A stretch of DNA of 63,998 nucleotides, the filler included, from Globobulimina sp. (lineage: Eukaryota), in assembly GCA_003354225.1 (NCBI GenBank). It is 15 parts of 15 records of this genome, joined end to end, with 100 filler letters (N's around TTAATTAATTAA, not from the genome) between each part and the next. Parts side by side here need not be neighbours in the genome. Positions count along the whole stretch, not along the records: positions 59,860 to 63,998 come from PIVH01001564.1; 14 more parts are not named here. One strand, 5' to 3'. A program made the translations under genes and the position numbers. Below, piece by piece: positions 500 through 63,928 of the stretch; the first letter of the stretch is position 1; every line of letters begins with the position of its first letter. Below the pieces are notes generated by a model, which made no database searches, had not been told where the DNA came from, and saw only the letters and a program-made list of their open reading frames with translations.

Positions 500-3400
500 A
501 TGCTGTCATCTTACCTTTGTATATTACTAATATTGAGCTTTACAATTAACGCATACATTCGAGGTAAATGTGCACCTTCCAATTCTACAAAAGAATTGGA
601 GAGAAGCAACATATATAATAAACTATCCTATAAACTTGAAAAAATCCAATATAAACGAAAAATAATTTTAAAAATAAACTCCCTCATAAACTCTTTGCCT
701 TTATCAAATTTAATTTTATATATCCTCCTATATTGTAATCCCCTCCTTTATCAAATAAATCCTAACTATACAGAACAGCCGCAATATCGCAATATAATGG
801 AGAATACAAACAACAAACCAGATGAACATATACAACCAACTAAAAAAGATCGATATAAAAACAAAATCACTGTTAACATTAAAATTAAACAATCGCAGTT
901 CCAACGGGAATCGGTACCGGTGAATCGCCAGAAAATGTTCCATATTAAGGATAATATTGATTTACGTAAACGTGGTGTTATTAGCGCCTCTTTCGCAGAG
1001 GAGGTAACATTCCCAGGTACAGCACCACAATGGATCAAACCAGCATTAATTGTGAAAGTACCCGCATTTAAGAAGAATAAATTATTTTATTATTCGCCTG
1101 ATTGGAATGATGTGTTTCCAGAACGCAAAGCCAATGAAATTCCAACAGTAAAGCCAGCGATTCCTCCTTCTCCTCCAAATGTATATACCAGAGGCGATAC
1201 CATATTGCCTGCCATCATTGAAAACAATAAAGAGTCATTACGACTCTCTCAATATCCAGTGCCCAAACAATCGAACCATAGTAAATATATCAAAAAAAGA
1301 CGAACAAAGAACAATGACAAAAGAAAGCAACCAATTCAAAAATCTGAAATTGTCGCGGATCAAATACGAAATATAAAGAAAACAGGTGCCTTCGTAAAAT
1401 ATGAGGTTAGAAATGGCGAAATATGGGATTTTAGATTCGATAAAATTGATTTAAAAAAAGCGGCCGTGGACTTAGACGAATATAAACAAGTATGGACGGC
1501 AGAGAATGAATGCGATATTAGCAATGTCAGAGTATCAGCAAATTCACTAAATATTTATTCCCCGGTGAGCAAATTCATGGATTTAATCAATGGTAAACAT
1601 CCCGATTACGCTCAAGCTATTAATATAATTTATAAATTTGCAAATACCAATCATCCCATTCATCGATTAGTTATCCATCATTTGGTGCCATCGACGATAA
1701 TTATTGATAATAAAATGATGTTACACTTAGACCCAATTGGCGGCTCCCGGACAGAGTCAATATTAATGGATTTAGATTGGAATGTTCCGTATCCGAAATG
1801 GCAGCACAATGATATCGAAATTACGTATATCAAAAAGCGATTAAACTGGAAACCAACAAATTTATGCTTATTCAACGTACCGCTGAGTATACTGAATAAC
1901 AATTCATTGCATCGAATATTAAACGAGAAAATAACAGCCGCTATAAATTCAACGTGTATCCTGTATACAATTATTAGTGCGATGGAAAACGACTATGCGG
2001 TGACGGAAATAAATTATATGCCATTACTTTTAGCATTTATTAGACCGCATGCGATCAAAATGGAGAGAATGGCAAAAGCTAAAATGGAATTAAATAAAAT
2101 TAGATCAAGGCCGGTACCAATGGATGAAGATTCGAATGAAAATACAGCGGACCTTAGTGATGACTCCGTAAATGCGGATCTATGGTATGACAATCTGACG
2201 AATAATATAAATGGAGAGTATCTGGATATTATTAAATTAATGGAAAAACATGCCGTGTCCCCCGAAGACGTATTAAATAGCAATAAAGTTAGAAATCGAC
2301 GTTGGTGCAGAAACACATTATATCATATGAGTAATGCAACGGGCAGTAATTTTGCGTTGCCGTGGTGGATAAATGTCGAAAGTTGGGAGAAAATGATTCA
2401 TTTTATTGCTGCACAGAATTGTATACAGCAAATTGACAAACCATTCCGATCGGACTTAGTATTTGAAGATAAGAGAATATTTATCACACCGCTAACCTCC
2501 ACGGGAATAAACCCAAAATTATTAATTGGCGATGAAGCATTGGGATTCCCCGCAATCCAATTTAGATTTGGCACAATCATCAAATTAATGTGCTTATTGC
2601 GCAGCAATTTATATTATGATTTCATTGCATTCGCTAAAACCTGTGCCTGTGGGAAGAAATTTGTGCCGCATTCAAAATGTCCGGAACAAGAACATTATAT
2701 TAAAAAACAAATAAATCGAATTAGACAGAAATATAAAAAAAGATTAATCACAAAGAAAACGATGGAAAGACAGATCAGTAAAATTGTATCAATAAAATGC
2801 ATTCGCTGTGGATATTGGGGGCACTTTGGACATGAATGTGAGTGCAAAGACGATGAAGTCCGATGTTTATGTTGTTATCGATCCAGACATATCCGGACAT
2901 TGAATGCATTGGTATGCGGCGACACTGCCAATTTAATAAATTTATTTACCAATTTGAATGACTTAAATACGAATTGGACCGACGTGGATTTCGCCAATAT
3001 CGACCATTATAAATTAATACAGTGCACAGTCAATGACAAATTAAAAATTGAGGATCTCTATAAAATAATCGATACAAACGCAACCAACCAACAAATCGCA
3101 TTAAATCCGGTGATATCCCAAATTAACAATGAAAATGGAAATTATATTGACGTGGCACAGAATAATAACAACAATGAATTACAAGCTATTGATGCAGCGC
3201 TGAATAATAATAATAATAATACAAATCCGCAGCAAACCAATTCGTTAGAAACCACAGAAGAACAGCTATTGAATCATGGATTGGTGGATGAAGACTTTGA
3301 TACGGAGCCTCCTCAAAAAATCGAGTTCAACGAAACTAAGAGCATTATATTGGCGGAGAATAACACATTGAACCAATCAGAATCTATGAACCAATCACAA

Positions 3401-3871
3401 ATTGAATTGATGAATAATCCATATATTTCCCCATCGCTTATTCCTATGCTGACCAGCCAGGCAGTCCTCAATTCCCTGCAAAATGTTGAATTTACGGATA
3501 GTTTCTCGAATTTATTATCAAATAGCAACCAATCGCAAGATAATAATACTCCAACATCGCTGCCAACAACCTACGATTTTAATGATGAGCCAGAAATTAT
3601 TACCATTGCACCCAGTAATCGCCCAAGAAAGCCACAACCAAAGAAAGCATTACATTCGGTATCAATTGCCCCAAATATACCAAAATATAAAGACCGAAGT
3701 TCCAGCGAGTCGTTCCGAGTGAATATGCTCAGTGAAAAAATTAATAAATCAACAACTGACAACAAGATCGATAACAAATTGCCATTCAAGAATTTGAGGA
3801 AAAAAGCAAAAAAATCCAATGCAAGAAAACGACAACAACAAAAGTCCGATATTAGAAAAGAAGCAAAATGA
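500..3871 (+). mobile_element. Probable non-LTR retrotransposon ORF1 (gag-like, zinc knuckles), 1123 aa
   Basis: Intronless 3.4-kb ORF; CIRCGYWGHFGHEC (CX2CX4HX4C) followed by CLCCYRSRH...C, then a long N/Q/S/K-rich disordered tail; next ORF overlaps at ATGA. Confidence 0.6.
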
Positions 3872-4179: not shown

Positions 4180-4279
4180 NNNNNNNNNNNNNNNNNNNNN
4201 NNNNNNNNNNNNNNNNNNNNNNNTTAATTAATTAANNNNNNNNNNNNNNNNNNNNNNNNNNNNNNNNNNNNNNNNNNNN
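4180..4279. other. Artificial contig linker (N44-TTAATTAATTAA-N44); identical copies start at 8458, 12735, 17012, 21288, 25564, 29840, 34115, 38390, 42665, 46940, 51215, 55488 and 59760
   Basis: 14 identical 100-nt N-flanked spacers with stops in all six frames; intervening contigs fall in length from about 4179 to 4172 nt. Confidence 0.99.
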
Positions 4280-5059: not shown

Positions 5060-6013
5060 ATGGCAGAGGAAAAACATGAAATAGAACAAGAGACTGTAAT
5101 TACATGGCTATGGAAGGATAAACATAATAAATGGAGACATTGTGATGATGAATTAACACAAAAAATGGAAATCCTGGCACCAAACCAATCAATAATTATA
5201 AAAGTAAATGGCAGATCATATCAAATAAATAAAACCGATTCAAACAATGCAACACAAACAAATACCAATTCAAAAAAAACTCGATCAATGAAGCGAAGGG
5301 AAAACAAATTGGATAAAATGAATCAAATAATATTTTGGTATTGGATGAATAGCAATAATCAATGGATACCATTTGATGATAAAATATCAAATCAAATTGA
5401 AAATATCCCGTTAAATGCAATGATTAATATGAATATTAATGGTAAAAAATATCAAATATGTAAACAAAAAACAGTCGATAATGCATATAAATATAATGTA
5501 AAAACAAAGACGCAAAGATCATTAAAACGGATTATAAAATATGTAAAAGATAGAGGTGTCTGGCAATACGAAAGTAATAATTATAAACATAAAACAATCA
5601 AAACATGGACTGATTTACCATTAGTTATTTGTATCGATATTGAAAATTTGGGAATTGGAGAATCAATGAAATATTCACTGGATAAACATAAGACATATAT
5701 TGTTGTCAAGAGATCAGAGTGCCGATGTGAACAAATTCGAACTTCCACAAAAAAGAAACGTATTTTAAGGAGAGTTGTAAGTGACATTCATAAATATGTA
5801 ACACCTATAAACGAGGAGGTTGATGGGAATGCGGTTGAAATGAATGATAATGTGGCTATGGATAATGAATGCGTAGTTTGTATGGACAAAGAAAAGAATT
5901 ATGTGTGTACTCCATGTGGACATTTATGTTTATGTAAGGATTGCATCAATGTTATAAATGGAAAGTGTCCAATTTGCCGGAGCGATTGCCAGGTTATCAA
6001 AGTGTTTAAATGA
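5060..6013 (+). CDS. Triple-WWE domain + C3HC4 RING E3 ubiquitin ligase
   Basis: Three repeats of W-x-W/Y...W..(F/C)D...IE...Y.I...Q.N..T...R...R; C-terminal CVVC...PCGHLCLCKDC...CPICR. Confidence 0.85.
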   Translation: MAEEKHEIEQETVITWLWKDKHNKWRHCDDELTQKMEILAPNQSIIIKVNGRSYQINKTDSNNATQTNTNSKKTRSMKRRENKLDKMNQIIFWYWMNSNNQWIPFDDKISNQIENIPLNAMINMNINGKKYQICKQKTVDNAYKYNVKTKTQRSLKRIIKYVKDRGVWQYESNNYKHKTIKTWTDLPLVICIDIENLGIGESMKYSLDKHKTYIVVKRSECRCEQIRTSTKKKRILRRVVSDIHKYVTPINEEVDGNAVEMNDNVAMDNECVVCMDKEKNYVCTPCGHLCLCKDCINVINGKCPICRSDCQVIKVFK

Positions 6014-8457: not shown

Positions 8458-8557
8458 NNNNNNNNNNNNNNNNNNNNNNNNNNNNNNNNNNNNNNNNNNN
8501 NTTAATTAATTAANNNNNNNNNNNNNNNNNNNNNNNNNNNNNNNNNNNNNNNNNNNN

Positions 8558-18197: not shown

Positions 18198-20979
18198 ATG
18201 ACAGCAGGAGCACATTTATCATTTCTTTTATTTTTTGCAGTGTTATTAAATCTAACAACATGTCATTTAAAATGTGGCCATGATACTTTTGAGCACCAAA
18301 TCTATCGAAATATCCGAACAAGTCTACCTCGACAAAACAAGAATATACTGACAAGAAATCAACGTAATTTACAAGATGCAGCAAATGATAATTTACCCGC
18401 AGATAATAACAATTGGGATAATATACGAATTGCATTCAACACAGAAGGTTTACTCTCTGGATGGACCAACACAAACTTTAAAAAATGGTTTGCCGTCGAT
18501 GTAATACCGGCAGCCATTGAATATTTACAGCAAAGTTTGTATCTAATTTATCTTAAACCGATCCTTTGCAGTTACACACTTTTATTTTATAGTCATTAAA
18601 GTTCGCCCAATCGACGGCAATTTAACCTTAGAGAGGAAATGTAGTTCGTGGCTAAATGAAGCAGAAAATAAATGCAAATCGTTATCGCATTCGTACAGAT
18701 CATGCAGTGGCTATTTTGACATCGAAGAATATTATTTCGATGAAATATATCTATGTCCAAATGGCGATGAAAGTTGTACACTGTCTCAAAGTGGCGGCGG
18801 CACTGCACATGATTTAACATTATATTTCGTGGGCAAATCATCAGGCGGTGGATGCTCCGGTGTGTACGGATACAGTTCCTATTGCCACAGCAATCTGTAT
18901 GACCGACCCATTGCAGGCTTTATAAATTTATGTGAGCAGACCTTGTTAGATGAAGGCGTTTATTTTACGTGGGAAAAGGCAGTGACATTGGTAGTGCACG
19001 AAGTGTATCACGTGTTAGGTTTCTCATCCACGGGATTTGCCTATTTTCGACGCAATGACGAGGCGCGAAGTGCAAGGTCGCCCCGCCACGGCGGCGATAA
19101 TGGGGATGGCGATGAACATGATGCTAATTTTGGCGATGTTTTACATAGTAATGAACGCGGCAGACATTATGCCTATGGCAATGATACGATAATCTATAAA
19201 TATGTCGCAAAACGAGAGAAAACCGCTGCATTTATTGTATTACCTACGGTTTTGACCGTAATTCGTGAGTTTTATAATTGCTCCACAATGATTGGACTGG
19301 AGTTGGAAGATTTTGGTGGCTCGGATACTGCGTCGAGCCATTGGGAACAGCGTATTTTATCCATGGAGTTTATGATTGGATATATCTCATCGGCTGCACC
19401 GGTTTCTATATTCTCATTCGCTGTGTTTGAAGATAGTGGATGGTACCAAATGAATTGGGAGTATGCCACGATACCACCATATGGTTTGTACTCTGTATTG
19501 TAAAGCCGGACAAAAGTGTTTTCGTGTTTTGGCATTACGGCTTTGAATGCTTTGAGTAGACAGTTTTTCCAAAGTAAAGTAAAGTGCTTACGGAATAATG
19601 GCAGCTTGTTTTGTGTAACATTGAACATTCCCCTTTTTGAGGCTTCTATTGTTGCAAAATTAAATATCAATCATGTTCTGTGCAAAGGTAAATCGTTTGG
19701 GTGTGATTGGTATGAAGAGAAATGTATAGTTGCTGTAGGTAATAAATTAAAAGCCTTAGACGAAGATATGTATTGCACAGAAGATGTAAAATATGCGTGC
19801 GCCGCCGATTACGTTGGCAAATCAAATTGCGAGTTGAAGGAATATACGGATGGCTCATTGCCATCACCATATCAATATTTTGGCGGTTTCGGCGATAACA
19901 TAACTGGCGGTGTCTTAGGATACGCTGATTTTTGTCCAATGTTTTACCATTATTCAAATGGTGACTGTCGGATTACTGAATCTTCGCACCTTTACGACTC
20001 ATTTGGTGCACAGATATGTCCACAATGTAAATGTAATGAAATGTATTCACATGATTTTAAAAAAAATTATGCAATTTGCTATCAATCGCAATGTGCGCAA
20101 AATTACTTATATTCTGACATAATATCTTCATTCGATTACAACGACAATGAATATTATAATGATTATAGTGATTATGTAGCGATACGAATAAAAATATCAA
20201 ATGACGAATATGATAAATATGAATATATTACCTGTTTTAGATTCGAATCTGATGAATATAAAAAAACCTCATATTATTCGTATTACATAAAATGTCCCCA
20301 ATTTGATGATATTTGCTATAATAAGAATCCATGGATGTGCCATGGCCACGGTATGATTAATCCGGATGGCGGAGGCGATGAATGTTTTTGTAATCATGGC
20401 TACATTGGATGTGATTGCACCATTCGCAATACACAAGAAAATAAATGGGACAGCGATGCCATAGACAGTACGTGTACGTATACGGAAGAAACAGTTGATA
20501 CATTTGGCTCAATGCCTGCACAAAATGAGAAGGATCTTAATTGGGATTATTTAGGTTTGGTGAATGTAACCATGCAAATTGATAATCGATATACGATTGA
20601 AAACATTATCAAAACATTGCGGCTATGGGTTGCCATCGATGTTAAAATACATGAAGAAAATGTATGGATTCAATCGTATCAAGATATGGATGAAAATAAA
20701 TTCAACTCTCTTTCTGGCGATATCCAAAATGATGAGGATGTTCAAAATTATTCCATCAGTATTGCTTATTATGATGATCAGAATCAAAATAAAATCAAAC
20801 CGGATTTATTAGTACATGAGTTTCGTTATTTATTCAACGCGGATTCGAAGAAAAAAGCAAATGATAATAGGTTTATATTGTATGATATTTATAATATCAA
20901 AGATCCAGACTCTGGTTGTAATGTTATAGCACCACGGTTTATTTTGTTGTTCTCGTTTGTGTTGATTATGTTATATTAA
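18198..20979 (+). CDS. Leishmanolysin/GP63 (M8) metalloprotease with EGF-like domain and hydrophobic C-terminal tail; introns 18535-18592 and 19484-19687
   Basis: Signal peptide, CGHD propeptide, RPIAG.IN.C, HEVYHVLGF, ELEDFGGSDTASSHWEQR, FEDSGWY, YGKSFGC and ADFCP motifs. Confidence 0.92.
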
Positions 20980-25663: not shown

Positions 25664-26782
25664 TTTAATACAAAAAATAATCACTGCAATTTGTGCCGTT
25701 CCAACACAAGTACACCAATTGAGCACCACTTAGCAGTCTGCTGCCCACAACTAAACACATTACGATATGAATATTGGAATCACGCCACTGCCAGCTTTGC
25801 AAAGAGTGGAGCAGCAATAGACCATATACACCATCACCTATATATGCAACGACTGATTGAACTATGTAGAAATGTCAATTTAAATCAGTCGCACTTCTGG
25901 AAAATACTATGTGGTGCGAATTATTATAACAATGATTCTCGCACTTTCAATTATATACACAAACAAATAAACATAAACACCACAAAACATACATTATATA
26001 ATGACGTTATTTCCCAAACCCACAGATGGTTACAGCACAGCAGACAAATTAACAAAGGAAAGTCCTCCATTCGTCAAATCCAATGCAAACATAACACCGT
26101 CCCATCAAAAATGATAATGTTCCATATAAGAAATGATAACCTAAATGAATGGCATCATTATCAGCACAAAATCAATGATACAGACTTAATCATAGCCACT
26201 GATTCCTCCCATGACCCCCAGACCAATACCACTGGCATAGGAATATACATTAAAAATAATAACAAAATACACTGCTTCTCGCAGCCAATAGGACAGCAAA
26301 CAAACCATTATGGCGAACTATATGCCATCTTCAAATCCAAATTCTTAATAAATTACCATAACATAAATATAACAAATAGAAGAATCATCATCTTCACAGA
26401 TTCGTTATTCAACTTCCTTCCACTGATCATCACTCCCCGAAGACATCGCAATAACCCGATATCAATCCTATTCAAAAACACACAAAAATACATAAAAAAG
26501 AACAAGATATTACTGTGGAAAGTCAAATCGCATACCAAACCACAACAACAGCCATTTAATCAGGTGACGGATATCTTAGCAGAAATTGGACGACAGCATC
26601 CACGAAATTCCAGCCTAATCACCACCAATTACAACTCCATACGCTATGCCAAATCCAAATCATTCGACTTTCCTTGGGGTATCTATCCCCACCAAATTTA
26701 CTCTCTCGCCGGGATGTTTAAGCAATCGGTGAGTATGGAGCCAGACTTAGATCCTGGCTGAATGTTGCCCCACTACTACTAC
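25664..26782 (+). mobile_element. 3' end of non-LTR retrotransposon ORF2: CCHC finger + RNase H + terminal DPG, then a short (CTA)n tail
   Basis: HCNLC...IEHHLAVCCP finger; RNase HI residues ATDSS, GELYAI, FTDS, KSH, NQVTDILA; ends LDPG*; CACTACTACTAC about 10 nt after the stop. Confidence 0.85.
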
Positions 26783-47039: not shown

Positions 47040-49865
47040 TATAGATAAGATTAACGAGGAAAAAGACGTTGAAACTAATATTAATGCAATTTATATCGAT
47101 ATCGGTGTGCCAGATTATTCATTATCAATTATTGAGAAATTATTTGAAAAAAAAGTCCGAAAAAATGAAGAAAAAGAATCATATATTTGTAAATCATTCC
47201 AGTCAGAAATACCAATTTATGCTAAAAAAACAGTAATTTATGATACATTAAATATTACAGTTTATAAATATGAATGGGAATCATTCCCTGAACATCAATA
47301 TAAACATTTAATGTTACGAGCTGAAACAAATCAGTTTGTTAGGTTTTTAATAACGTGCTCATTTAATAATGTTTTCAAAGATAACATAAAATTGGCATCA
47401 GATAAAGATGAAATTATTATCACCAAATTGGCAAAATCAAAGAAGTCAAAAATTAACAGTAATGAGGCAAACAATGTTGGCAGAATTGAGCTAAAAATCA
47501 GAGTTAAACCTTATCAAAAAAGAGATTTACTGCTTGCAAAAGTTTGTGCGGATAATTATAAGTGGAGTTGGAAAGTACAACAAAGAAATACGTCAAAAAA
47601 AGACAATAATATTTATTTGAAATTGGCTGAAAAACAGTATGTATTTTTTGTTTTTCATTTATATCATAAATTGATTGTTAATGCCTCAGCTTAAGCGGAA
47701 TTAAAACAAATTATGACCAAATATATATAAAAAATGATTTACAGCAAATATCAAATGTAAAACAATTACATAATAAGCTTTTTGATGAATTAAAGGTTCC
47801 ATTTTTTATGGATATGAATTTCTTACCATTTAACGAATCAATAATGTCAATATCATTGGCACAAAATGAGAGTAAAAATAGTAATCAAGATGAAAATGAG
47901 GATAATCGCTATGTAAAATGTTTTGAAACATCATTATTTAAACGCGTAATTGATATGAAATTAACCTCAGATTATGAATCATATTTATTTTGCCCAGATA
48001 GAAAAATATCATTTAGGAATATTGAGCAAGGAAACTTACCAAATTGTGGTTTTGTTGCATCTCTGGTAAGTGTTGCACATAAAAAAGCATTATTAATTAG
48101 GAAAAATATATTTAATATTGATAACATGAATGAATTTGGAATATATACAGCAAATTTATATTTTAATGGTATTTTAACAGAGTACGTGTTGGACGATTTT
48201 ATACCATGTTATTGTTATGGACATAAACAGCCATCATTCACAAAACATGTTACAAATATAATATCAAATAAAAATAGAAAAAATAGAAAAATAAATAAAA
48301 AGAAAAGTGGAAATAAATACAATATAATATGGGTATTATTATTAGAAAAATGTATGGCAAAATTGTATGGAGGTTATGATCGTTTATCAAATATGTATGC
48401 CGTGGATGCATTTGCAATATTAACTGGATATCCAAGTGTCGAAATTGATTATGCGACAATGGATAATGCTGAAAAGCAAAGTGCAATTTGGAATAAATTA
48501 ATCAAGTTTGGAAACAATAAAAATATATTATTAACGTCGTCATGTCACCCAAAGCGAGGTCGTAAATCAATAAACGATTTATTTGGTTCGTCGTGGAAGC
48601 GCAAAAATGAATTTTTTGGTTTGTTTGCTAATAAAGACGGTCATGTTTGGAGTATAATTCGTGTCGTTGAGTATAAAACTATAAAATTAATTTGTTTACG
48701 CAATCCATGGGGTGAAACATTAGAAGATAGTTCAGCTGGCAATGGGTTACCTGGCGATCGATGGAAAGGTAAATATTCGAGATATGATACAATGTCATGG
48801 ACTAAACAATTGCTACAAGAAACCAAACCAAATTTGAAATATAATGATGGAACATTTTGGATGTCGTTGAATGATTATATGCATTATTTTTATAATTTAA
48901 GCATTTGCTATTGTTTCAATAATGATTATTCGAGGTTAGCTACAAAATGTAGTATTAAATATTGTGTATCGTCAGAGAATCAAAGTATGTTATTTCCAAA
49001 AATTATAATTGATATAAGGTTAAACGATGAGATGGATGAAAAGGTGAAGGATGAATTGGAAAATAAAGGATTAATATTAAAATGGGTTGGTATCATTCAG
49101 CAGGATGTGATGAATAAAAATAACACTTTTGATATAAAACCTACTGAATATTTAGATACATGTTTGTTTATTGGCGTTATTGATGAAAATAATAATATTA
49201 AACCAATAACATTAACTAATGTAAGCGCAGGAGCGAGAAGAATAAATTATGGTAAACAAGCATTAAATATTCGATTGAAAGCAAATAATAAATATATATT
49301 AATACCATACAGCACTGGGTTAAGACATGCTTTTTGTCCGTCTTCATCCGGATCTGATACAAATATTACAATAACTTCATTTATTTCGGGTAATAGAAAT
49401 AATGCGTATAATATTAAAATGATAAATAATGATTTTGTTAATGTACAACAAATATACGACATATTGTCAAATTATATAAAAATATCAAATGATTTCAAAA
49501 AATCAAAGAAAAATGAGAATGATTTTATATTTACAGATAAAACATTTAATGGCATGATAATTGCAGCTTGGTTCCATAAAAGAAATGATTTTAAATTTAA
49601 AACAAAAATAAAATTTAAATTAAACAATTGTTTACCTGCAGTTGGCTTCGATTACAATAATTATTTAATAAAACATAGAAAGAAATTTTTTGGCCAAAAA
49701 AATAAAAATGATCCTAATAAAGCTAAAAAATATTCGTGGACTTTTAATGTTGAGAATTATATATCAAATCAAGTGTGTTTAGTTATTATGAAAAAAATAA
49801 AAAACGAATCAAATCAATTTGGATATTCATATTCCTTCGATAATGGCAACTTTGAATCTTGCTAA
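47040..49865 (+). CDS. Calpain-family cysteine protease (5' partial); intron 47637-47689
   Basis: Catalytic triad motifs QGNLPNCGFVASL, GHVWSI and LRNPWG; WVLLLEKCMAKLYGGY; DGTFWMS. Confidence 0.92.
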
Positions 49866-54800: not shown

Positions 54801-55487
54801 CTATCCAAGCCGTAATATCCCAGCGGCCATCAACAACTCAATCTTATCTTTAATATGCGGTCTATCCCTCATCGCCTTATACAAAATGGTGTTATCGCCA
54901 GACTGTGCTTGCAATAACACACTGGAAACCTCAGGATCATTCATAGCCGCTTGAACCGCCGGATCTTGCAATGCCCGCTGTCTCTCCTCGTCACTTATCG
55001 GCCCACTTTGATTTCTCCTTTGTATCGCCATCAAAGTGTCTCTTTTCGCAGTGATCAAATCCTCCACAGTCGCATCAATGGCCTCCGCCTGTTTGTACGC
55101 TTCGAGCGCTTTATGATATTCTTTCAAACAATGATGGATTTTGCCTTTGCGTATGTACGCTTTCACGAAGAGCGGTTCTAATTTGATCGCCTCGTCACAA
55201 TCACTCATAGCCGCGTCCCAACGCATCAATTTACAGAAACACGTCGCCCGATTACTGTAAATCTTATGATCGCCCACATTCCGCTGCAACGCTTGCGTAT
55301 ATTTCTCGATCGCGTCTGCAAATTTACCCGCACTGAAACAGACATTTCCTTCTTGCTTCAACTTCTCCGCCAACTCCGGGTCAAACAACGCCTCTTCCTT
55401 CTCTTTGACTTCCTGCCGTTCCAATTTGCGCACTTTTACACGCAACTTATCGTCGTGCTGCTCCACCATCTCGCCCGCGAGCGCCGC
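54801..55487 (-). CDS. STI1: STI1/HOP Hsp70-Hsp90 organising protein, TPR2B + DP2 (5' partial)
   Basis: DPELAEKLKQEGN, YSNRATC, FVKAYIRKG, ALQDPAVQAAMNDP, KIELLMAAGILRLG. Confidence 0.93.
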   Translation of the reverse strand, partial: AALAGEMVEQHDDKLRVKVRKLERQEVKEKEEALFDPELAEKLKQEGNVCFSAGKFADAIEKYTQALQRNVGDHKIYSNRATCFCKLMRWDAAMSDCDEAIKLEPLFVKAYIRKGKIHHCLKEYHKALEAYKQAEAIDATVEDLITAKRDTLMAIQRRNQSGPISDEERQRALQDPAVQAAMNDPEVSSVLLQAQSGDNTILYKAMRDRPHIKDKIELLMAAGILRLG

Positions 55488-56178: not shown

Positions 56179-57535
56179 ATGTCAGCGACTAAATACAGCG
56201 TAGGTGATGAAGTGTGTCTTGTTAAAGATCGGCAAGGAATAATCCAATTCAAGGGCCAGATTGAAGGGAAGAAGGGTTCATATTATGGCGTAGAGGTCAC
56301 CGTAGGAGCAGGCAAACACAGCGGAATGTATAAACATGTCAAATATTTTGAAGTTATTATATTTACATATTATATATACCAGTACATATACAAACATATA
56401 TAAACAGTGCGGAGAAGGACAAGGCATATTTGTTGAAGACAGACATGTTTTATATAAAATGGAATATAGTTTCAGCGATAAAGAGGAAGATGAAATACCG
56501 GGATCAGCAACACCGGGAACACCGGAAACAATCATTAAAAAATCTAGAAGATCAAGAAAAAAAAAGGCAAAAAAAGGGAAAAAGAAAAAGAAAAAGAGAT
56601 CAAAATCGCCGTATATAAGACAAATGCAATATATTTCAAGCGATGAAGAATTAGATTTATTAGAAACTGACGCGGCGATCAGTTTGTTGTCATTATCAAA
56701 AATAGAATTAATCCAAAAATGTAAAGCCAAAGGAATTGTGTGTTTAGGTAAAAAGGAAGAATTAGTTCACAAACTATTGACAACCAAACAAGTCAGAAAC
56801 TATTCCTTTAAACGGGTAAACTCATTCACATTAAATGCAAAAGATTATAAACACGAATATTTGACATTATATGAGTGTAATTATTATTTTATCTGCGGAT
56901 ATATTAAACAAAATATGGTCAGAATCGAAAACAATGCAATAAAGATTACGTTGCTGCAATATATTCAGAGTGTGATCCCATTCTTTGATGTCTGTCCAAA
57001 GGAATATAGGAAAGAGATCAAACAGAATGGCTCGGTGATAAAACAAAATAAAACAAGGAAACAATTTTTGGTGGGCTGCTCCAAAGGGTTTGCACCAAAC
57101 AGCGGTATTTATCGGTTTTCAATAAGAATAAATAAGTTAAATAAGAATCGGAATAAAAATGAAAAAGAGAAGGATGAATTTGGTTTATTGTCAGATAGGA
57201 AATATATTCGCATGCGAGATGTCGAGGATGATGTTGCTTTATGGAATGTAGATTGTAATTCGTATTATATTTCATTGAATAATGTGTATGGAACGCATAA
57301 GATATCGAGTGGTGGCTTTAATCGACGTAAAGTTGGATTGTTGTCAAACGATTCTAAGCCAATTAAACGGCTGGATATTGTTACCATTGTATTAAATACA
57401 AATAGATCGAGATTGTATTTTGAGAAAAATGGAAAACGATATTGCGAATCGTTTGATATTGTACCAAATTGTGTATACTATCCGTGTGTTAGTTGTGGCT
57501 GTAAACATAATGAATATGAAATCGTGTTTTTTTAA
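56179..57535 (+). CDS. CAP-Gly + SAP-like + SPRY-like protein; intron 56353-56407
   Basis: VGDEV...GIIQFKG...YYGVE...GKHSG....KYFE|C....GIFV (CAP-Gly); LSKIELIQKCKAKGI...GKKEELVHKL (SAP); C-terminal SPRY-like beta motifs ending YYPCVS. Confidence 0.8.
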
Positions 57536-57610: not shown

Positions 57611-59759
57611 TCACCATAATATACATTTATTTTGTGGATTCATAGCAGATCCAACGGGGCAATTAAATGTGTCTGCAAAAGCTTGCGCATTTTGTACAAC
57701 AGCAACCATTCTGGGCTTTTCCGGGGAATGAGTCCAATAATATCCAGGTTGTGTAATTTTATCATCGATCATAAAACTTTTTTGTCCAAATATCACAAAA
57801 AGTCCTTGCAAATCCGATCCAATATAATTTCTCATGATTTAGATGTTGTAATCCTGGCAATTCCACCTCATCCCAATAATCATTGCTTTCTTCAATATAT
57901 TTAGTGAATGCAAGGTATGATTCTTGAACTCCTGCATTGTCCGCACAATTTTCAGTGATTGAATTTGTTCCATTTAAAAATATACCATTTACACTCAAAT
58001 TATCATATTGTTTTATAAAACAGTCCATTTTTTGTGCATAATTTGTAAGTGTTGAATTTGTCCAAATTGACACTTTTGTTCCATTCCAATTAAATCCAGA
58101 TCCCGAAGGGTCAAATGCGTGAGAAATCTCGTGCCCAATGACACCGCCAATTGCTCCAAATTTCATGGCCGAGGGATAATTCATACGGAAAAAGGGAGAA
58201 ATTGATATTGTCCACGGCATAACAAAGAAATTTCCATTTTCATTTGCTATTCTTTGACGATTGTAAAATGCAGTAATTTGGGTCAACCACGAATCCTCAT
58301 AACGACCATGAATAAGTCGTTCCGGATGCGATAAAGCTAGCGGCCATTGAGGGGAAACCAAATTAGTTTCTACATTTCCTTTGAATCTTAGTAACATTTG
58401 TGCTTGTTTGAAATCTATTAATTCTTCATAATTTTGCACAAAATTAGATTCATTTAATGTCATATTCAAATAATAAAGATTCAAATTGCTAATATTTCTA
58501 ACTTTTGGCGGTAAGCCAGTGTACATTCTCATACTTTGTGCTTTTAACAATACATTGTTTTTGGATTCTTGGTCCATCCATTCAGCGGATTCGATCAATG
58601 GAATTGCCCCTTTTTGCATGATATAATGTGAGATTTTGTCAATTTCAGTTTGAGCGGCAATTCCATACATTTTTTTATCCAAAATATGAGCGTAAATATA
58701 ATTAAATCCATTTTTGGTTAATTCAAAACAAAACTGCTTGCGATCAATTTTATTACTTTGATGTAATGATTCTTTGTTTGATAAAATACTCAAATATAAA
58801 AAGTACTGTACAGTGATTGGTGGCGTACTTTCAATCAAAACACGAAAATCATTAAAGAAATCAATACCATTTTGCAAATAAATAATATATTCAATCTCTG
58901 ACGAAATGGATTCAATTTCAAATGTATTGAAAATTAATTGGGAATAGTTCAAAATTGAGGATGCCCCAAAAATATCATTAATTTCATCAAATTGCATCGA
59001 TGATAATGTATCTGCGTTATATGGCTCTTTTTGTATTGTGCTGATATTTGCAATTTTATTCATAAAATCAATGATTTCATCAGAGATAATATTTCTTTCC
59101 GTTTCATTTAATCCGAATAATAATTCAAATTCTTTTTTGTATACATTATCCATCATATTTTTCCAAAACGTCACATTAAATCCAATCCATATATTTCCAT
59201 TTTGATAAATTGAAGGAATTTGTTGTGAATAAGTGTTTAAATTAAAAAATAAATTCCATCTTCGACGAGATAACCATTTTAATGCATTTTGGAAACGATG
59301 AATTTCAATGAATGTCCAATTAATATTTAAATCCATATTATTAATAATATTTTGAGTGAAATTCACATTTTCAATGAATTTATTTAATAAAATGTTTGCT
59401 TCAATTTCTTCTTTATTTGCATTTGATGAATAACACGAATCGTAAAATGTAATCACTTTTCGAATGCTACTTTCATTTAAATTCAATCCATTCTTATTTG
59501 TAAATATTGCTTCTAAGAATGCATCTTTTTGCAAATCAGCCATTTTATCTAAAGCTCTATATTGGTGCTCTCCATTTTGCGCCAATTTATATGAATATTC
59601 TTTGGTAAATCCATGACATGAATAACTGAAGAAATCATTGCATGGATCATAGGATTCATCCATATAAGATAAGATTTCTTGAGATAATTCAATACATTCT
59701 TGCCTAATATATCCATGTATGATTGGCATTGCCCATAAGCTTGCTTTAAATCTGCAAGT
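57611..59759 (-). CDS. Neprilysin/ECE (M13) metalloendopeptidase (5' partial) with a frameshift near 57762-57785
   Basis: DPCNDFFSYSC, TAFY, FGAIGGVIGHEISHAFD, ENCADNAG; the terminal HSP...R...FNCPVGSAMNP..KC.LW lies in the +1 frame. Confidence 0.9.
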
Positions 59760-59859
59760 NNNNNNNNNNNNNNNNNNNNNNNNNNNNNNNNNNNNNNNNN
59801 NNNTTAATTAATTAANNNNNNNNNNNNNNNNNNNNNNNNNNNNNNNNNNNNNNNNNNNN

Positions 59860-60229
59860 TTTTTTTCAAAACCTGCTTTTTTTTTTTTTTTTTTGTGTCT
59901 ATCGCCTGTTTTTCCAAAAGTGCAATGGATGTAAAGCATCTCAAAAATTTCCTTTTTGTGTCTTCGTCGAATATTCCTATCGGTAACTGTTTTTTTGTAT
60001 GGGATTGGCGTTTTGGTGTGCGATTAAATTCAGTTTTCCCTCTTCCTCCGCATTTTTCCTCTGCAGGCAAGTTGAATCTCACTTTTCTAGTGTTTTTGCA
60101 ATGTACTGCAGTTTTTTTTGAGCTTGTACTCAATGTGCGTGTGCATTTTAATTTTAATCTGGTTGCTGGTTGTAACTTTACTATGCGTCGACGCCATTTA
60201 TTGTAGCTAACTCTTTGAAGAGATTTCAT
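59860..60229 (-). CDS. Very basic ORF divergent from the transposase (3' partial)
   Basis: About 123 open codons from ATG to the contig end; K/R-rich; contains KVRF. Confidence 0.4.
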
Positions 60230-60380
60230 AATTTTGGAATTAGGGCTATTTAATTATATTTCATAATGACGTAATTATTACATTTAAAAATAATAATTCA
60301 TATTACATATTACATCTTCAATAATTATATCATCTTCAAAATAATATCTGCATTCTACAACATACGCAAATATCAAAGCA

Positions 60381-63300
60381 ATGGAAACTATCTCAATGGT
60401 TGAAGTATATAAAAGCATCGCAATATGTAAAGAAGCTGAGATTATATCAAAAATTGTATCGGAAAAAACAATCCGTTTGAAACAAGCCATCGATATCGGA
60501 AATAAAGGAACATTGGATACAAGTCATCATATTACGGTTTTTATTACAAAATGGTGGGATGAAAAAACATTAATTTTGGATGGTATTGACACAAATATGA
60601 CTGTATTGGGACTCAAACATCGGATAAAAGAAAAATGCATTACATTTAATATACAAACGGAAGATATGGCATTGTATAGATTACATTGCGACAATGTAAC
60701 ATTAAAAAAATGTCGCATATCAAATTTGGAAACAATAATGATGAATCCTAAAAATTGCATAAAAGGTGGAGGAATGGATAGATTTGACATTGTTTATGGT
60801 GACATTGACAGTGACAGTCAAAATGAAATGGAAATAACTCGCAAACGCAAATTGCCTCTCTTGCCACGTCCGCCAAGAAAAAGACAAAAACTTGGTAAAA
60901 AAAATAACAATTTCACTGATCACTTTGAAATCAGAACACTAACATCAGAGTCAACTTCTCCAGTCAACTTCTCCAGACATGGAGCATTCAATAAATCCAT
61001 TTTTTTTTCGAAACGTAATACAAATAAACATAATAAAAATATATCAAATAATAAAAATATATCAAATGTATCAATAACAGACAGTGAGAGCGAAGAAAAT
61101 ATTGCAGTAAGTCTAAATGAGTCAGAATATACTGCATCTGAAAAAGAGTTAGAATATACTGCTGACCTAAGTAGTGATGATGATAGTGATTGGGGCAAAT
61201 CAGAATTATTACGTTTAGAACAAAAATATGAAAAAAAAATCAAAAAATTAAAAGATGATCTTTTGAAAGAAAAACGTAAATGTAGAGACTTATTACATTT
61301 AAAAGAAAAACATGAAGAAATTATCAAAGATTTAAAAGATGATCTTTTGAAAGAAAAACGTAAATCTAGAAAGGGTAAAAAAAATACAAACAAATTCAAG
61401 GATAAAACAACTGAATTACCAACAAAATCAAATTCTAAATCATCAAGAGTGAGAAGTTCTAAAAAGATTGCAGCTGGTATCAAAGATTTATCGCATTTGG
61501 AAAAAGTTTTAAGACATATGCCAGATATAAAATCAGAGTATAATGATAATATCATTAATGGATACATCAAAACAAAAAATAAAAAAAATGCAAAATATAA
61601 AAGAAATATGGGATGGTCATTGCGTTCAGCCGCTATTATTTGTCATTCAAACAGCAGCAGACGTTCATATAATCTTCTAACTACTAAAAAATATAAAATA
61701 TGGGATGAAGAGACTCAAGAATTAGTGGATGTGGACTTAGGAGATATAAAGTCCTTAAAACCATCATGTTACAACACAATATTAAAAAGAATTCAACTAT
61801 TTTATGTAAATCATTCAGGATATAAATGGAATCCGTCAATTGACTATAAAATAATACAAAGATCAATAAAACATGTAATAAAACAAGATATAAAGTTCGC
61901 TATCAAATATAAGGTAGAATCAAATGAACTAGTTCGAAATTTAGGAGAATTTGTAAACAACAATCCAAATGCATCAATATATCGAAGTAAATCTTTCATC
62001 TTTTTTTTTAGTGACGGCACCGGAGTTCGAAGTGGACGAGATGGTTTATTAGTATCTGCAGTATCTACCACTCATTATGAGGATCATGCAAGCTCTGTGT
62101 TCACACAGACAGATGTGTTCGCAGCAGAGATTAAAGAAAAAGGTGACAGAGCGCTGCAACATTATAAAGAAGCAAATAAAGAACTAAAAGAAATCATAGC
62201 AACAGGATCAATTACAGTTAACATTGCTGAAAACTTCAAAGTGGTTGAGAGTTATTCAGGTGCTCAAATGGTTGCAGATATGGGATTATCACCAATGTGG
62301 CGAAATACTAAAGGATTAAATTCAACAATATTTGATTGCGTTGGATGTGTTTTATCTGGAAATAAAAAAAAACAAACATTTATTTCAAAGACAAATTGGA
62401 CTCAGTATATTGATATTGCTAGTAAGACACCAACAGAAATACAAAAATCAAAAAGCAAAAAACAATCATATACACCAATCACACCAGAAATCGCTGTTAA
62501 CGAAGGTAAAAAAATACAGGAGATTTTCGATGCTGGCAAAAACAAATGGAAAGAAACCAGACACAATTTTCATCGAAACAAAATAGCAAATTCACAGGGT
62601 TCTGTATTTTTAGGTTCGCCAGTAGCTGAGTTAGCATTTGGTCCGATTTTACCAGTATTGCATATTACATTATCATTACATGATGTTGCAATCTCCAAAT
62701 CTATGGTAAAAGCAACATCACGTGGTTTTACAATGGGTCCGTCTGTTTTCGATGCGTTCGAAGCAATGGGCCCATCAACATTTCTCAAATCCACTAGGTT
62801 GCAGCTAGAAAAACTTGCAATCAAAAAGAGATCAAAACCTATACATTCCACAGGAACAATGGCAATATATGGAATTAACAGCAAATATAATAAACGTTAT
62901 TTTAACGAAATGGCAAAATCAATTGCTAATACTTCAATAACTAAAAAAAACAAAATAACATCAAATGATAAAATATACCATCAAATATTATGTAGTATTA
63001 CATATTTAGTCTTATTTTTTGCATCATATCCTATATTAATCTCAAAATTAAAGATATTAACAGAAGACCAACATAAAAAAGCAGAGGAATATGGAAGAGC
63101 TGCTTTAACTTTGGTCAAAGAATTCCATACCTCATTTTTCTGGGGATATTTGTGGATATGTTGCAAATCTCTGCCACTATTTATTAGATGGTCTATTGAT
63201 ACAATAGGGAAGAATCAATTCATAGCATATGACGGCAGACATGAATCAGATTTGAAGGATTGGAAACGAGAACATAAATTAAGAAATAATAATTCGAAAA

Positions 63301-63779
63301 AGTCTTTGCAAAGTCTAGGAAATAGAATGGATATGAAACGTAAAGCAACCATTATTACTGGTTTATGGAATTATAAAACATCAGAAGAACAGGCACGAAA
63401 ACAACGCCATTTATATCACCAACGAAAATTATTTGCACACGACATAATAAATGAAAATGAATCACATTTGTTGTATGTACAAGAATTATTTGATTTTGCA
63501 CTTAAAAAAAGAAAAAAAATGCCAGAATCATTCATGAACATTATAAATGACCCAAAAATAACAAAAGATTGTAAACAGACAGAAACATTATTACAGCAAA
63601 TGGGAGAACGAAAGCCAGAAAATGATGGAAAAGACAAAGAAAAAAGTAACGAAGAAATACGAAACGATCCGGAGTTAGAACAAGTTGACGCTGAAGTATT
63701 GTTTTCAAATGACAGTAACAGTAACAGTCACAATCACAATCAAAAAAGAGAAATTTCGTCATCAGATGATTTTGAATAA
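60381..63779 (+). mobile_element. RAG1/Transib/Chapaev-type DDE transposase fused to an N-terminal ubiquitin-like domain, 1132 aa
   Basis: Ordered motifs S...Y..L, FSDG (D545), VAD (D633), CxxC (653/656), PVLH (H761), HES..K (E955); Ubl at aa 51-130 ending GG; intronless. Confidence 0.78.
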
Positions 63780-63921: not shown

Positions 63922-63928
63922 CACTGTG
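63922..63928 (-). repeat. RSS-heptamer-like candidate transposon terminus (CACAGTG on - strand)
   Basis: CACTGTG on + strand 142 nt after the transposase stop, followed by GC-rich GGCCA. Confidence 0.5.

Follow-up and report, generated by a model that had tools for sequence, protein, structure and literature searches.

The last contig of a 63,998-nucleotide stretch of Globobulimina sp. DNA (assembly GCA_003354225.1; the whole stretch is called the window below) runs from position 59860 to the window end and holds a single long gene, an intronless open reading frame (ORF) of 1132 codons with flanks of 520 bp on the 5′ side and 219 bp on the 3′ side. The predicted product is a transposase-like protein preceded by an N-terminal extension of 131 residues; this extension appears to contain a very divergent ubiquitin-like (Ubl) module, which ends in Gly-Gly immediately ahead of an internal methionine, M132. 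The explanation favoured here, tentatively, is that a divergent Ubl add-on was fused upstream of a foraminiferal, probably RAG1/Transib-type protein, on whose dosage it would act in cis. Coordinates of the features are given in Table 1.

As for the Ubl-like segment, the original prediction, made from the letters of the DNA alone, had described aa 51-130 as following the ubiquitin pattern; the letters it quoted and its coordinates were correct, with positions 60531-60773 corresponding to codons 51-131 of the ORF on the + strand. A Pfam scan of aa 41-131 returned exactly two families, both of the ubiquitin fold. The ubiquitin family itself (PF00240) matched aa 54-122 over model positions 2-68 of 72 (93%), with an expectation value (E) of 0.041 and a score of 14.1 bits where the cut-off is 25.4. 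The second family, the Crinkler N-terminal domain (PF20147), matched over model positions 19-57 of 106, with E 0.045 and 14.9 bits against a cut-off of 24.6. The whole 1132-aa protein, compared with Pfam, gave zero rows at E <= 1. Set beside the sequence of ubiquitin, the segment appears to share its hydrophobic core residues and its helix motif, with a tail about two residues longer.

The controls for these two matches were 40 in-frame 91-aa pieces of window ORFs, seven of them taken within this ORF and the other 33 on other contigs, which were given the same Pfam scan. At least one Pfam row was obtained for 23 of the 40 pieces, with 31 rows in total, and a ubiquitin-type family was found in none of the 31. 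Sub-threshold rows at E <= 0.1 numbered 19: three were families properly matched by the full-length proteins (calpain, WWE and RNase H), two were the SAP/SAP_new25 pair falling on one stretch, which looks real, and the other 14 had no support from the full-length proteins. Coverage of more than 60% of the model, to be compared with the 93% of the ubiquitin row, was reached by only one of these 14 unsupported rows, and the SAP/SAP_new25 pair was the only case among the controls in which two related families fell on one stretch below the cut-off.

Regarding the end of the module, the predicted di-glycine followed by Gly-Met is indeed there: the segment closes with I-K-G-G-G, and the next codon is the ATG of M132, at 60774. 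From the composition, ~1.9 Gly-Gly would be expected in 1132 residues, and the single occurrence is the one at G129-G131. It lies 7-9 residues past the last position matched by PF00240, where the tail of a Ubl would end; the chance of finding GG in a given 8-residue window is ~1.4%. A relative of the protein points to the same place. An exhaustive HMMER search among 1.84 billion representatives gave only six relatives, and only one of them, P0005 of Nonionella stella, extends into the N-terminal part. The conserved block is preceded by 159 residues in P0005 as available and by 297 in the ORF; BLASTP aligned query residues 298-459 from its own residue 160, phmmer aligned query residues 189-460 from its residue 72, and its first residue maps to query 118-139, a bracket that contains M132 (within ~14 residues). 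Because P0005 appears to start at about the equivalent of M132, the GG(G)-M junction has the look of a genuine boundary between modules, and we read M132 as the ancestral start and aa 1-131 as an add-on that this lineage or copy acquired through a fusion.

The 131 codons before M132 are truly coding, because the frame stays open and the codon preference is that of the frame. They contain no in-frame stop, against 10 and 10 stops in the other two + frames, and the chance of 131 open codons is ~1e-5 (8.4% stops per codon at the base composition of the contig). With a codon-preference measure trained on 17 other ORFs of the window, aa 1-131 had a log-ratio of +0.12 to +0.19 in frame and negative values in the other two forward frames; along the remaining ORF the log-ratio was 0.13-0.54, a range with which the N-terminal values are compatible. 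These figures bear on another account of the gene, in which translation would normally start from M132, leaving the 131 codons ahead of it as a leader or as part of a rarely used alternative isoform. The start context of M132 is good (purine at -3, G at +4), and the Nonionella protein appears to begin at the corresponding point; however, an untranslated leader would not keep such a long open frame or an in-frame codon bias, and the context of M1 (AAAGCAATGG; A at -3, G at +4) is good as well. A normal start at M132 is considered very unlikely.

Several results speak against a Ubl at this place. The match to the ubiquitin-family hidden Markov model (HMM) fell well short of its curated cut-off, and so did that to PF20147. 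Unsupported rows arose in the controls at ~0.35 per segment at E <= 0.1 and, since they are this common, an E of 0.04 alone is ordinary noise and has no weight by itself; moreover, the segment was picked by the earlier reader for its likeness to ubiquitin, so that the HMM test is not independent. No ubiquitin was found at E <= 10 in a phmmer search of aa 1-140 against PDB chains, no relative of the aa 1-131 add-on was detected by HMMER among the 1.84 billion representatives, and a word-indexed search of aa 1-200 among shorter proteins gave no relative at E <= 0.1. Among the Atlas (protein-language-model) neighbours of aa 46-133, the best three are unnamed, at 0.87-0.88, and all are below 0.9. 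The tail from the last matched strand to the GG is longer than that of ubiquitin, and a 50-aa leader precedes the module. Finally, the idea that homologous transposases share the Ubl and its GG did not hold, as far as can be seen, in the sole relative that reaches the N-terminus (1/1), P0005, which has no Ubl.

Two further results complete this picture. Rad60-SLD and ubiquitin are two of the three named sets among the Atlas neighbours listed, at 0.85, and serve as a lead only. Modelling of aa 1-150 with AlphaFold2 without an alignment gave a mean predicted local distance difference test (pLDDT) of 29, hence no usable model, and weighs neither way on any fold.

A chance resemblance is a rival explanation: aa 1-131 would be a real coding extension that is not a beta-grasp, with GGG as a flexible linker. 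The HMM scores lie below threshold, where unsupported rows are common, the add-on has no relatives and no counterpart by phmmer or at 0.9 in the Atlas, and its K/I/T/L-rich composition, which it has in common with ubiquitin, is typical of this AT-rich proteome. This account is less at ease with both rows being ubiquitin-fold families, one of them covering nearly the whole model, when none of the 31 control rows was alike, or with a GG placed where a Ubl tail would end, and we consider it somewhat unlikely. The ubiquitin pattern announced for aa 51-130 is borne out in part, by Ubl-specific Pfam matches that lie below the cut-offs, and the beta-grasp fold is putative. A Ubl-like module ending in GG ahead of the remaining protein is weakly but specifically supported, and the segment is probably a real, lineage-specific and very divergent Ubl add-on.

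After M132, the protein is first acidic and then basic, and continues with a stretch rich in Ser and Asp, a Lys/Glu-rich helix and the conserved body. The six relatives are P0002 (625 aa, from Bolivina), P0005 (330 aa) and four short fragments; all four of the named ones come from Bolivina argentea or Nonionella stella. A word-indexed search with aa 400-1060 gave zero relatives, and none were found in two metagenome scans and two viral-contig scans. From these comparisons, the core appears to be a transposase-like family so far seen only in foraminifera and invisible to Pfam. Two of the short fragments, P0003 and P0004, lie on contigs of 942 bp and 1138 bp and match the C-terminal end of the ORF with 53% and 63% identity, respectively; residues 1-72 of P0004 stay outside the alignment. 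The two fragments point to additional, diverged family members in some fragmented assembly.

The sequencing contigs of one sample contain a second allele or copy that differs from the ORF at five positions (62006, 62015, 62042, 62066 and 62219). All five differences are synonymous and occur at the third codon position, and for this reason the core is under purifying selection, as a constrained gene. No second copy of the ORF is present in the window (tblastn; self match only). Beyond the gene, at the high-copy tandem repeat of the contig end, sequencing contigs return on themselves over a distance of 128-129 bases, 11-12 letters lying between; this repeat, which is outside the gene, is the reason why the contig stops.

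As for the identity of the body, the original prediction had named it a RAG/Transib transposase, a claim that is retained as a lead on the strength of Atlas feature similarity and that found no support in HMM or PDB sequence searches; a RAG1/Transib-like body is, at this stage, a moderately probable lead. For aa 400-1060, the nearest Atlas neighbours are unnamed eukaryotic clusters (0.92), followed by RAG1 clusters at 0.89-0.91, and RAG1 families are common to nine of the ten best named neighbours; the features shared with the RAG1 clusters number 138-155, below the 170 typical of one family. A candidate catalytic triad, D545/D633/E955, has spacings of 88 and 322 aa, and D633 and E955, with their surroundings, are invariant in the relatives; the codon of D545 changes from GAC to GAT in the second allele or copy, a synonymous difference. 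The motifs, and the distance from the second Asp to the CxxC, are presumably like those of RAG1.

Other observations count against this identity. Pfam recognized neither RAG1 nor any other family in the whole protein, in four pieces of the core or in the 625-aa P0002, and no RAG1 or Transib chain was found at E <= 10 in six PDB sequence/profile searches of the ORF or its core. The spacing between the second Asp and the Glu, 322 aa, exceeds the values given for Transib (206-214 aa) and RAG1 (253 aa), and it is near the 325 aa given for hAT (Kapitonov and Jurka, PMC1131882). A hAT-type transposase was considered on account of this spacing and rejected, since neither hAT nor BED families are recognized by Pfam and the neighbours in the Atlas are RAG1. 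In short, the ORF is like RAG1/Transib in its Atlas features and may be so in its candidate D/D/E, the CxxC placed 20 residues past the second D and a long D-to-E spacing; it differs from them in having no Pfam or PDB match and in the extent of this spacing, and no terminal inverted repeats are seen in its short flanks.

Signs of mobility were sought around the ORF. In the available 520-bp and 219-bp flanks there are no inverted repeats bracketing the ORF and no 5-bp target duplications; terminal repeats of the RAG1/Transib type begin with a CAC heptamer, and the sole CACTGTG, at 63922, sits within the high-copy tandem repeat. The heptamer is not enriched in the window (33 found versus 48 expected). 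Structure prediction is neutral: an AlphaFold2 model of aa 340-1040 built with the six relatives had a mean pLDDT of 40, with no bearing for or against any fold, and a Foldseek search of this core model against the PDB gave nothing at E <= 0.001, only meaningless rows.

In the favoured explanation, the ORF would encode a transposase-like nuclear protein restricted to foraminifera, which is probably an enzyme of the RAG1/Transib type, very divergent and with putative Asp-Asp-Glu (DDE) chemistry. This copy would have gained its 131-residue N-terminal add-on by gene fusion, 5′ of the original start M132; the add-on would consist of a leader of ~50 aa and a highly divergent, putatively beta-grasp module of ~80 aa ending in Gly-Gly(-Gly). 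The module would most likely stay attached, or be at most partly removed, and in cis it may offer a handle on the amount of transposase that accumulates, presumably through contacts with the proteasome or with ubiquitin receptors. The GG-(G)-Met junction would then be a scar of ubiquitin-fusion-type ancestry.

The dosage role is a proposal, whose nearest precedent is the cargo of nematode Maverick elements. These proteins (WASP proteases such as MSFT-1, and KRMA kinases) are described as having a divergent, modular N-terminal Ubl that sets protein dosage, and a point mutation in this Ubl raised the dosage of the toxin (bioRxiv 10.1101/2022.07.12.499685). As in the ORF, a divergent N-terminal Ubl is placed on a protein tied to a selfish element, a likeness of architecture; the Maverick cargo differs in its nematode host and in its partner, which is a protease or a kinase and not a transposase, and the available account of that work mentions no Gly-Gly processing site.

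The fate of the junction is where a cleavable ubiquitin-fusion precursor would part from the cis-acting add-on. In this precursor, the main idea of the original prediction, a host Ubl-specific protease would cut after the GG and produce a free Ubl of 130/131 aa and a transposase starting at G131 or M132, as occurs for polyubiquitin and ubiquitin-ribosomal-protein fusions. The GGG directly before Met, with no other GG in the protein, agrees with such processing, as does the coincidence of the junction with the start of the P0005 homologue. On the other side, the module, at 14 bits, is probably too far from ubiquitin for ubiquitin-specific proteases, judging from their known specificity; the ORF has no protease domain (Pfam), and the host is unlikely to keep a dedicated protease for a lineage-specific Ubl without detectable relatives. 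It also counts against a precursor of this type that most Ubl domains located within larger proteins stay uncleaved.

A parallel for the junction comes from the polyubiquitin of Rhizaria, whose monomers are described as joined via 1-2 extra residues (A, S or T) after GG (PMC3014934); host enzymes there would thus process GG-X-Met junctions and, the DNA of the window being foraminiferal, the rhizarian junction format would apply. GG-G-Met may therefore be the local format of a ubiquitin fusion, which is a parallel only and not proof of cleavage. Like the ubiquitin-fusion genes, the ORF has a ubiquitin-type module that ends in GG before the Met of the next module, with GG-G-M in place of the rhizarian GG-A/S/T-M; unlike them, its module is only remotely ubiquitin-like, follows a 50-aa leader, has a longer tail and is joined to a transposase-like partner of 1000 aa. 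Release at the GG by a host protease is rated lower than retention, given how little the module resembles ubiquitin and how isolated it is, which makes a protease devoted to it unlikely; the cleavable precursor is accordingly regarded as improbable. Its most elaborate version, in which a transposon-borne Ubl would be clipped by the host at GG-X-Met, freeing both a RAG1/Transib-like transposase that begins at its ancestral Met and a conjugatable free Ubl, is judged highly unlikely.

The PF20147 match (E 0.045) leads to one more explanation, a Crinkler-type header, that is, a Ubl for translocation or trafficking placed on a nuclease-like, transposase-derived effector domain and not on a working transposase. 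Crinkler (CR) effectors are described as having a Ubl fold at the N-terminus and, behind it, an enzymatic C-terminus directed at nucleic acids, and CR proteins, including those of free-living eukaryotes, join such headers to nuclease- or transposon-derived C-termini (PMC5289972), a layout that the ORF would share. However, the PF20147 model is covered only in part and below its cut-off, and aa 1-140 contain no LxLFLAK-type string; in addition, the module is not at the extreme N-terminus, since 50 residues precede it, and the basic stretch that resembles a nuclear localization signal (NLS) comes after it. A Crinkler-type header is thus considered extremely unlikely, and the cis-acting Ubl add-on remains the explanation tentatively retained.

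Table 1. Features of the Globobulimina sp. ORF and of its contig, in window coordinates.
Feature	Position	Strand	Basis or remark
ORF, 1132 aa (P0001), intronless	60381..63779 (including stop codon)	+	Nearest 5′ in-frame stop at 60342
Leader, aa 1-50, ahead of the Ubl-like segment	60381..60530	+	No family match; codon log-ratio +0.19 in frame
Ubl-like segment, aa 51-131	60531..60773	+	PF00240 and PF20147 matches, both sub-threshold
G129-G130-G131, only Gly-Gly of the protein	60765..60773	+	Full-sequence count
ATG of M132	60774..60776	+	Context GGAGGAATGG; probable ancestral start codon or alternative start
Basic stretch RKRK...KRQKLGKK, aa 154-174	60840..60902	+	Read from sequence; may be a bipartite NLS, which it resembles
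84-bp unit present twice (87% alike), a 28-aa tandem duplication in the Lys/Glu-rich helical stretch	61202..61370	+	
Block aa 298-459, conserved with Nonionella stella P0005	61272..61757	+	34% identity, E 8e-24
D545 in FFFSDGTG, candidate first catalytic Asp	62013..62015	+	Putative role, by likeness to RAG1 motifs
Core aa 571-1121, conserved with Bolivina argentea P0002	62091..63743	+	41% identity, E 6.9e-106
D633 in Q-M-V-A-D-M-G-L, candidate second catalytic Asp	62277..62279	+	Invariant in P0002
C653-x-x-C656, starting 20 residues after D633	62337..62348	+	P0002 keeps the first Cys only
E955 in H-E-S-D-L-K-D-W-K-R-E, candidate catalytic Glu	63243..63245	+	E and LKDWKRE also present in P0002 and P0006
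High-copy tandem repeat at the contig end	63870..63998		Word depth ~91 versus ~9 over the ORF (~10x)

The rest of the window consists of other contigs. The window as a whole is made of 15 contigs of ~4.18 kb chained in order of length and separated by linkers of the form N44-TTAATTAATTAA-N44, at 4180-4279, 8458-8557 and so on, the last one at 59760-59859; because the contigs are joined by these linkers, gene neighbourhood across them is meaningless, and neighbours in the window are not neighbours in the genome. Ordinary eukaryotic genes occur at 5060-6013, 47808-49865, 57762-59729 and 19768-20979, with WWE plus RING, calpain, M13 peptidase and a leishmanolysin-like fragment (Pfam). An ORF similar to HOP/STI1 (54801-55469, - strand) is 78-79% identical to its top matches, the named one being from the foraminiferan Ammonia sp., and only 52% identical to the protein of Reticulomyxa filosa; by this comparison, the DNA belongs to a foraminiferan. 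A 399-aa ORF (56336-57535) contains, at 56636-56908 on the + strand, the stretch matched below cut-off by two SAP families (E 0.02), probably a real SAP domain, which precedes a SPRY domain. Another ORF (25844-26761, + strand, 305 aa) has an RNase H domain (E 6e-7) and is possibly the remnant of a retroelement. Lastly, an ORF of 1123 aa (500-3871, + strand) has strings similar to Cys/His knuckles and no Pfam family at E <= 0.01; it may encode another orphan or mobile-element protein.

In conclusion, no Ubl-transposase fusion was found in print in open-access text, and the same body of text gave nothing relevant on Transib in foraminifera, Rhizaria or protists; in PMC3417536, Transib and ubiquitin-like appear in unrelated contexts. 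The architecture, with its putative fold, is supported by one orphan copy and by sub-threshold profile matches, and it would surprise transposon specialists. If real, it would bring together known themes, namely ubiquitin-fusion genes and Ubl heads on selfish-element proteins, on a partner for which open-access text gave no such report. It would also touch the old question of how transposases limit their own amount and so avoid harming the host: a built-in Ubl handle would, if true, be a direct answer for one family, parallel to the tuning of the toxin in nematode Mavericks. Vertebrate RAG1 has a RING E3 in its N-terminal region, where the ORF would have a Ubl; recombinases of the RAG1 type would then be connected to the ubiquitin system in two independent ways. 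Should the core prove to be of the RAG1/Transib type, the range of this superfamily would widen into Rhizaria and, if the precursor were cleaved, the element would be borrowing the ubiquitin-processing machinery of the cell to dose or mature its own recombinase.

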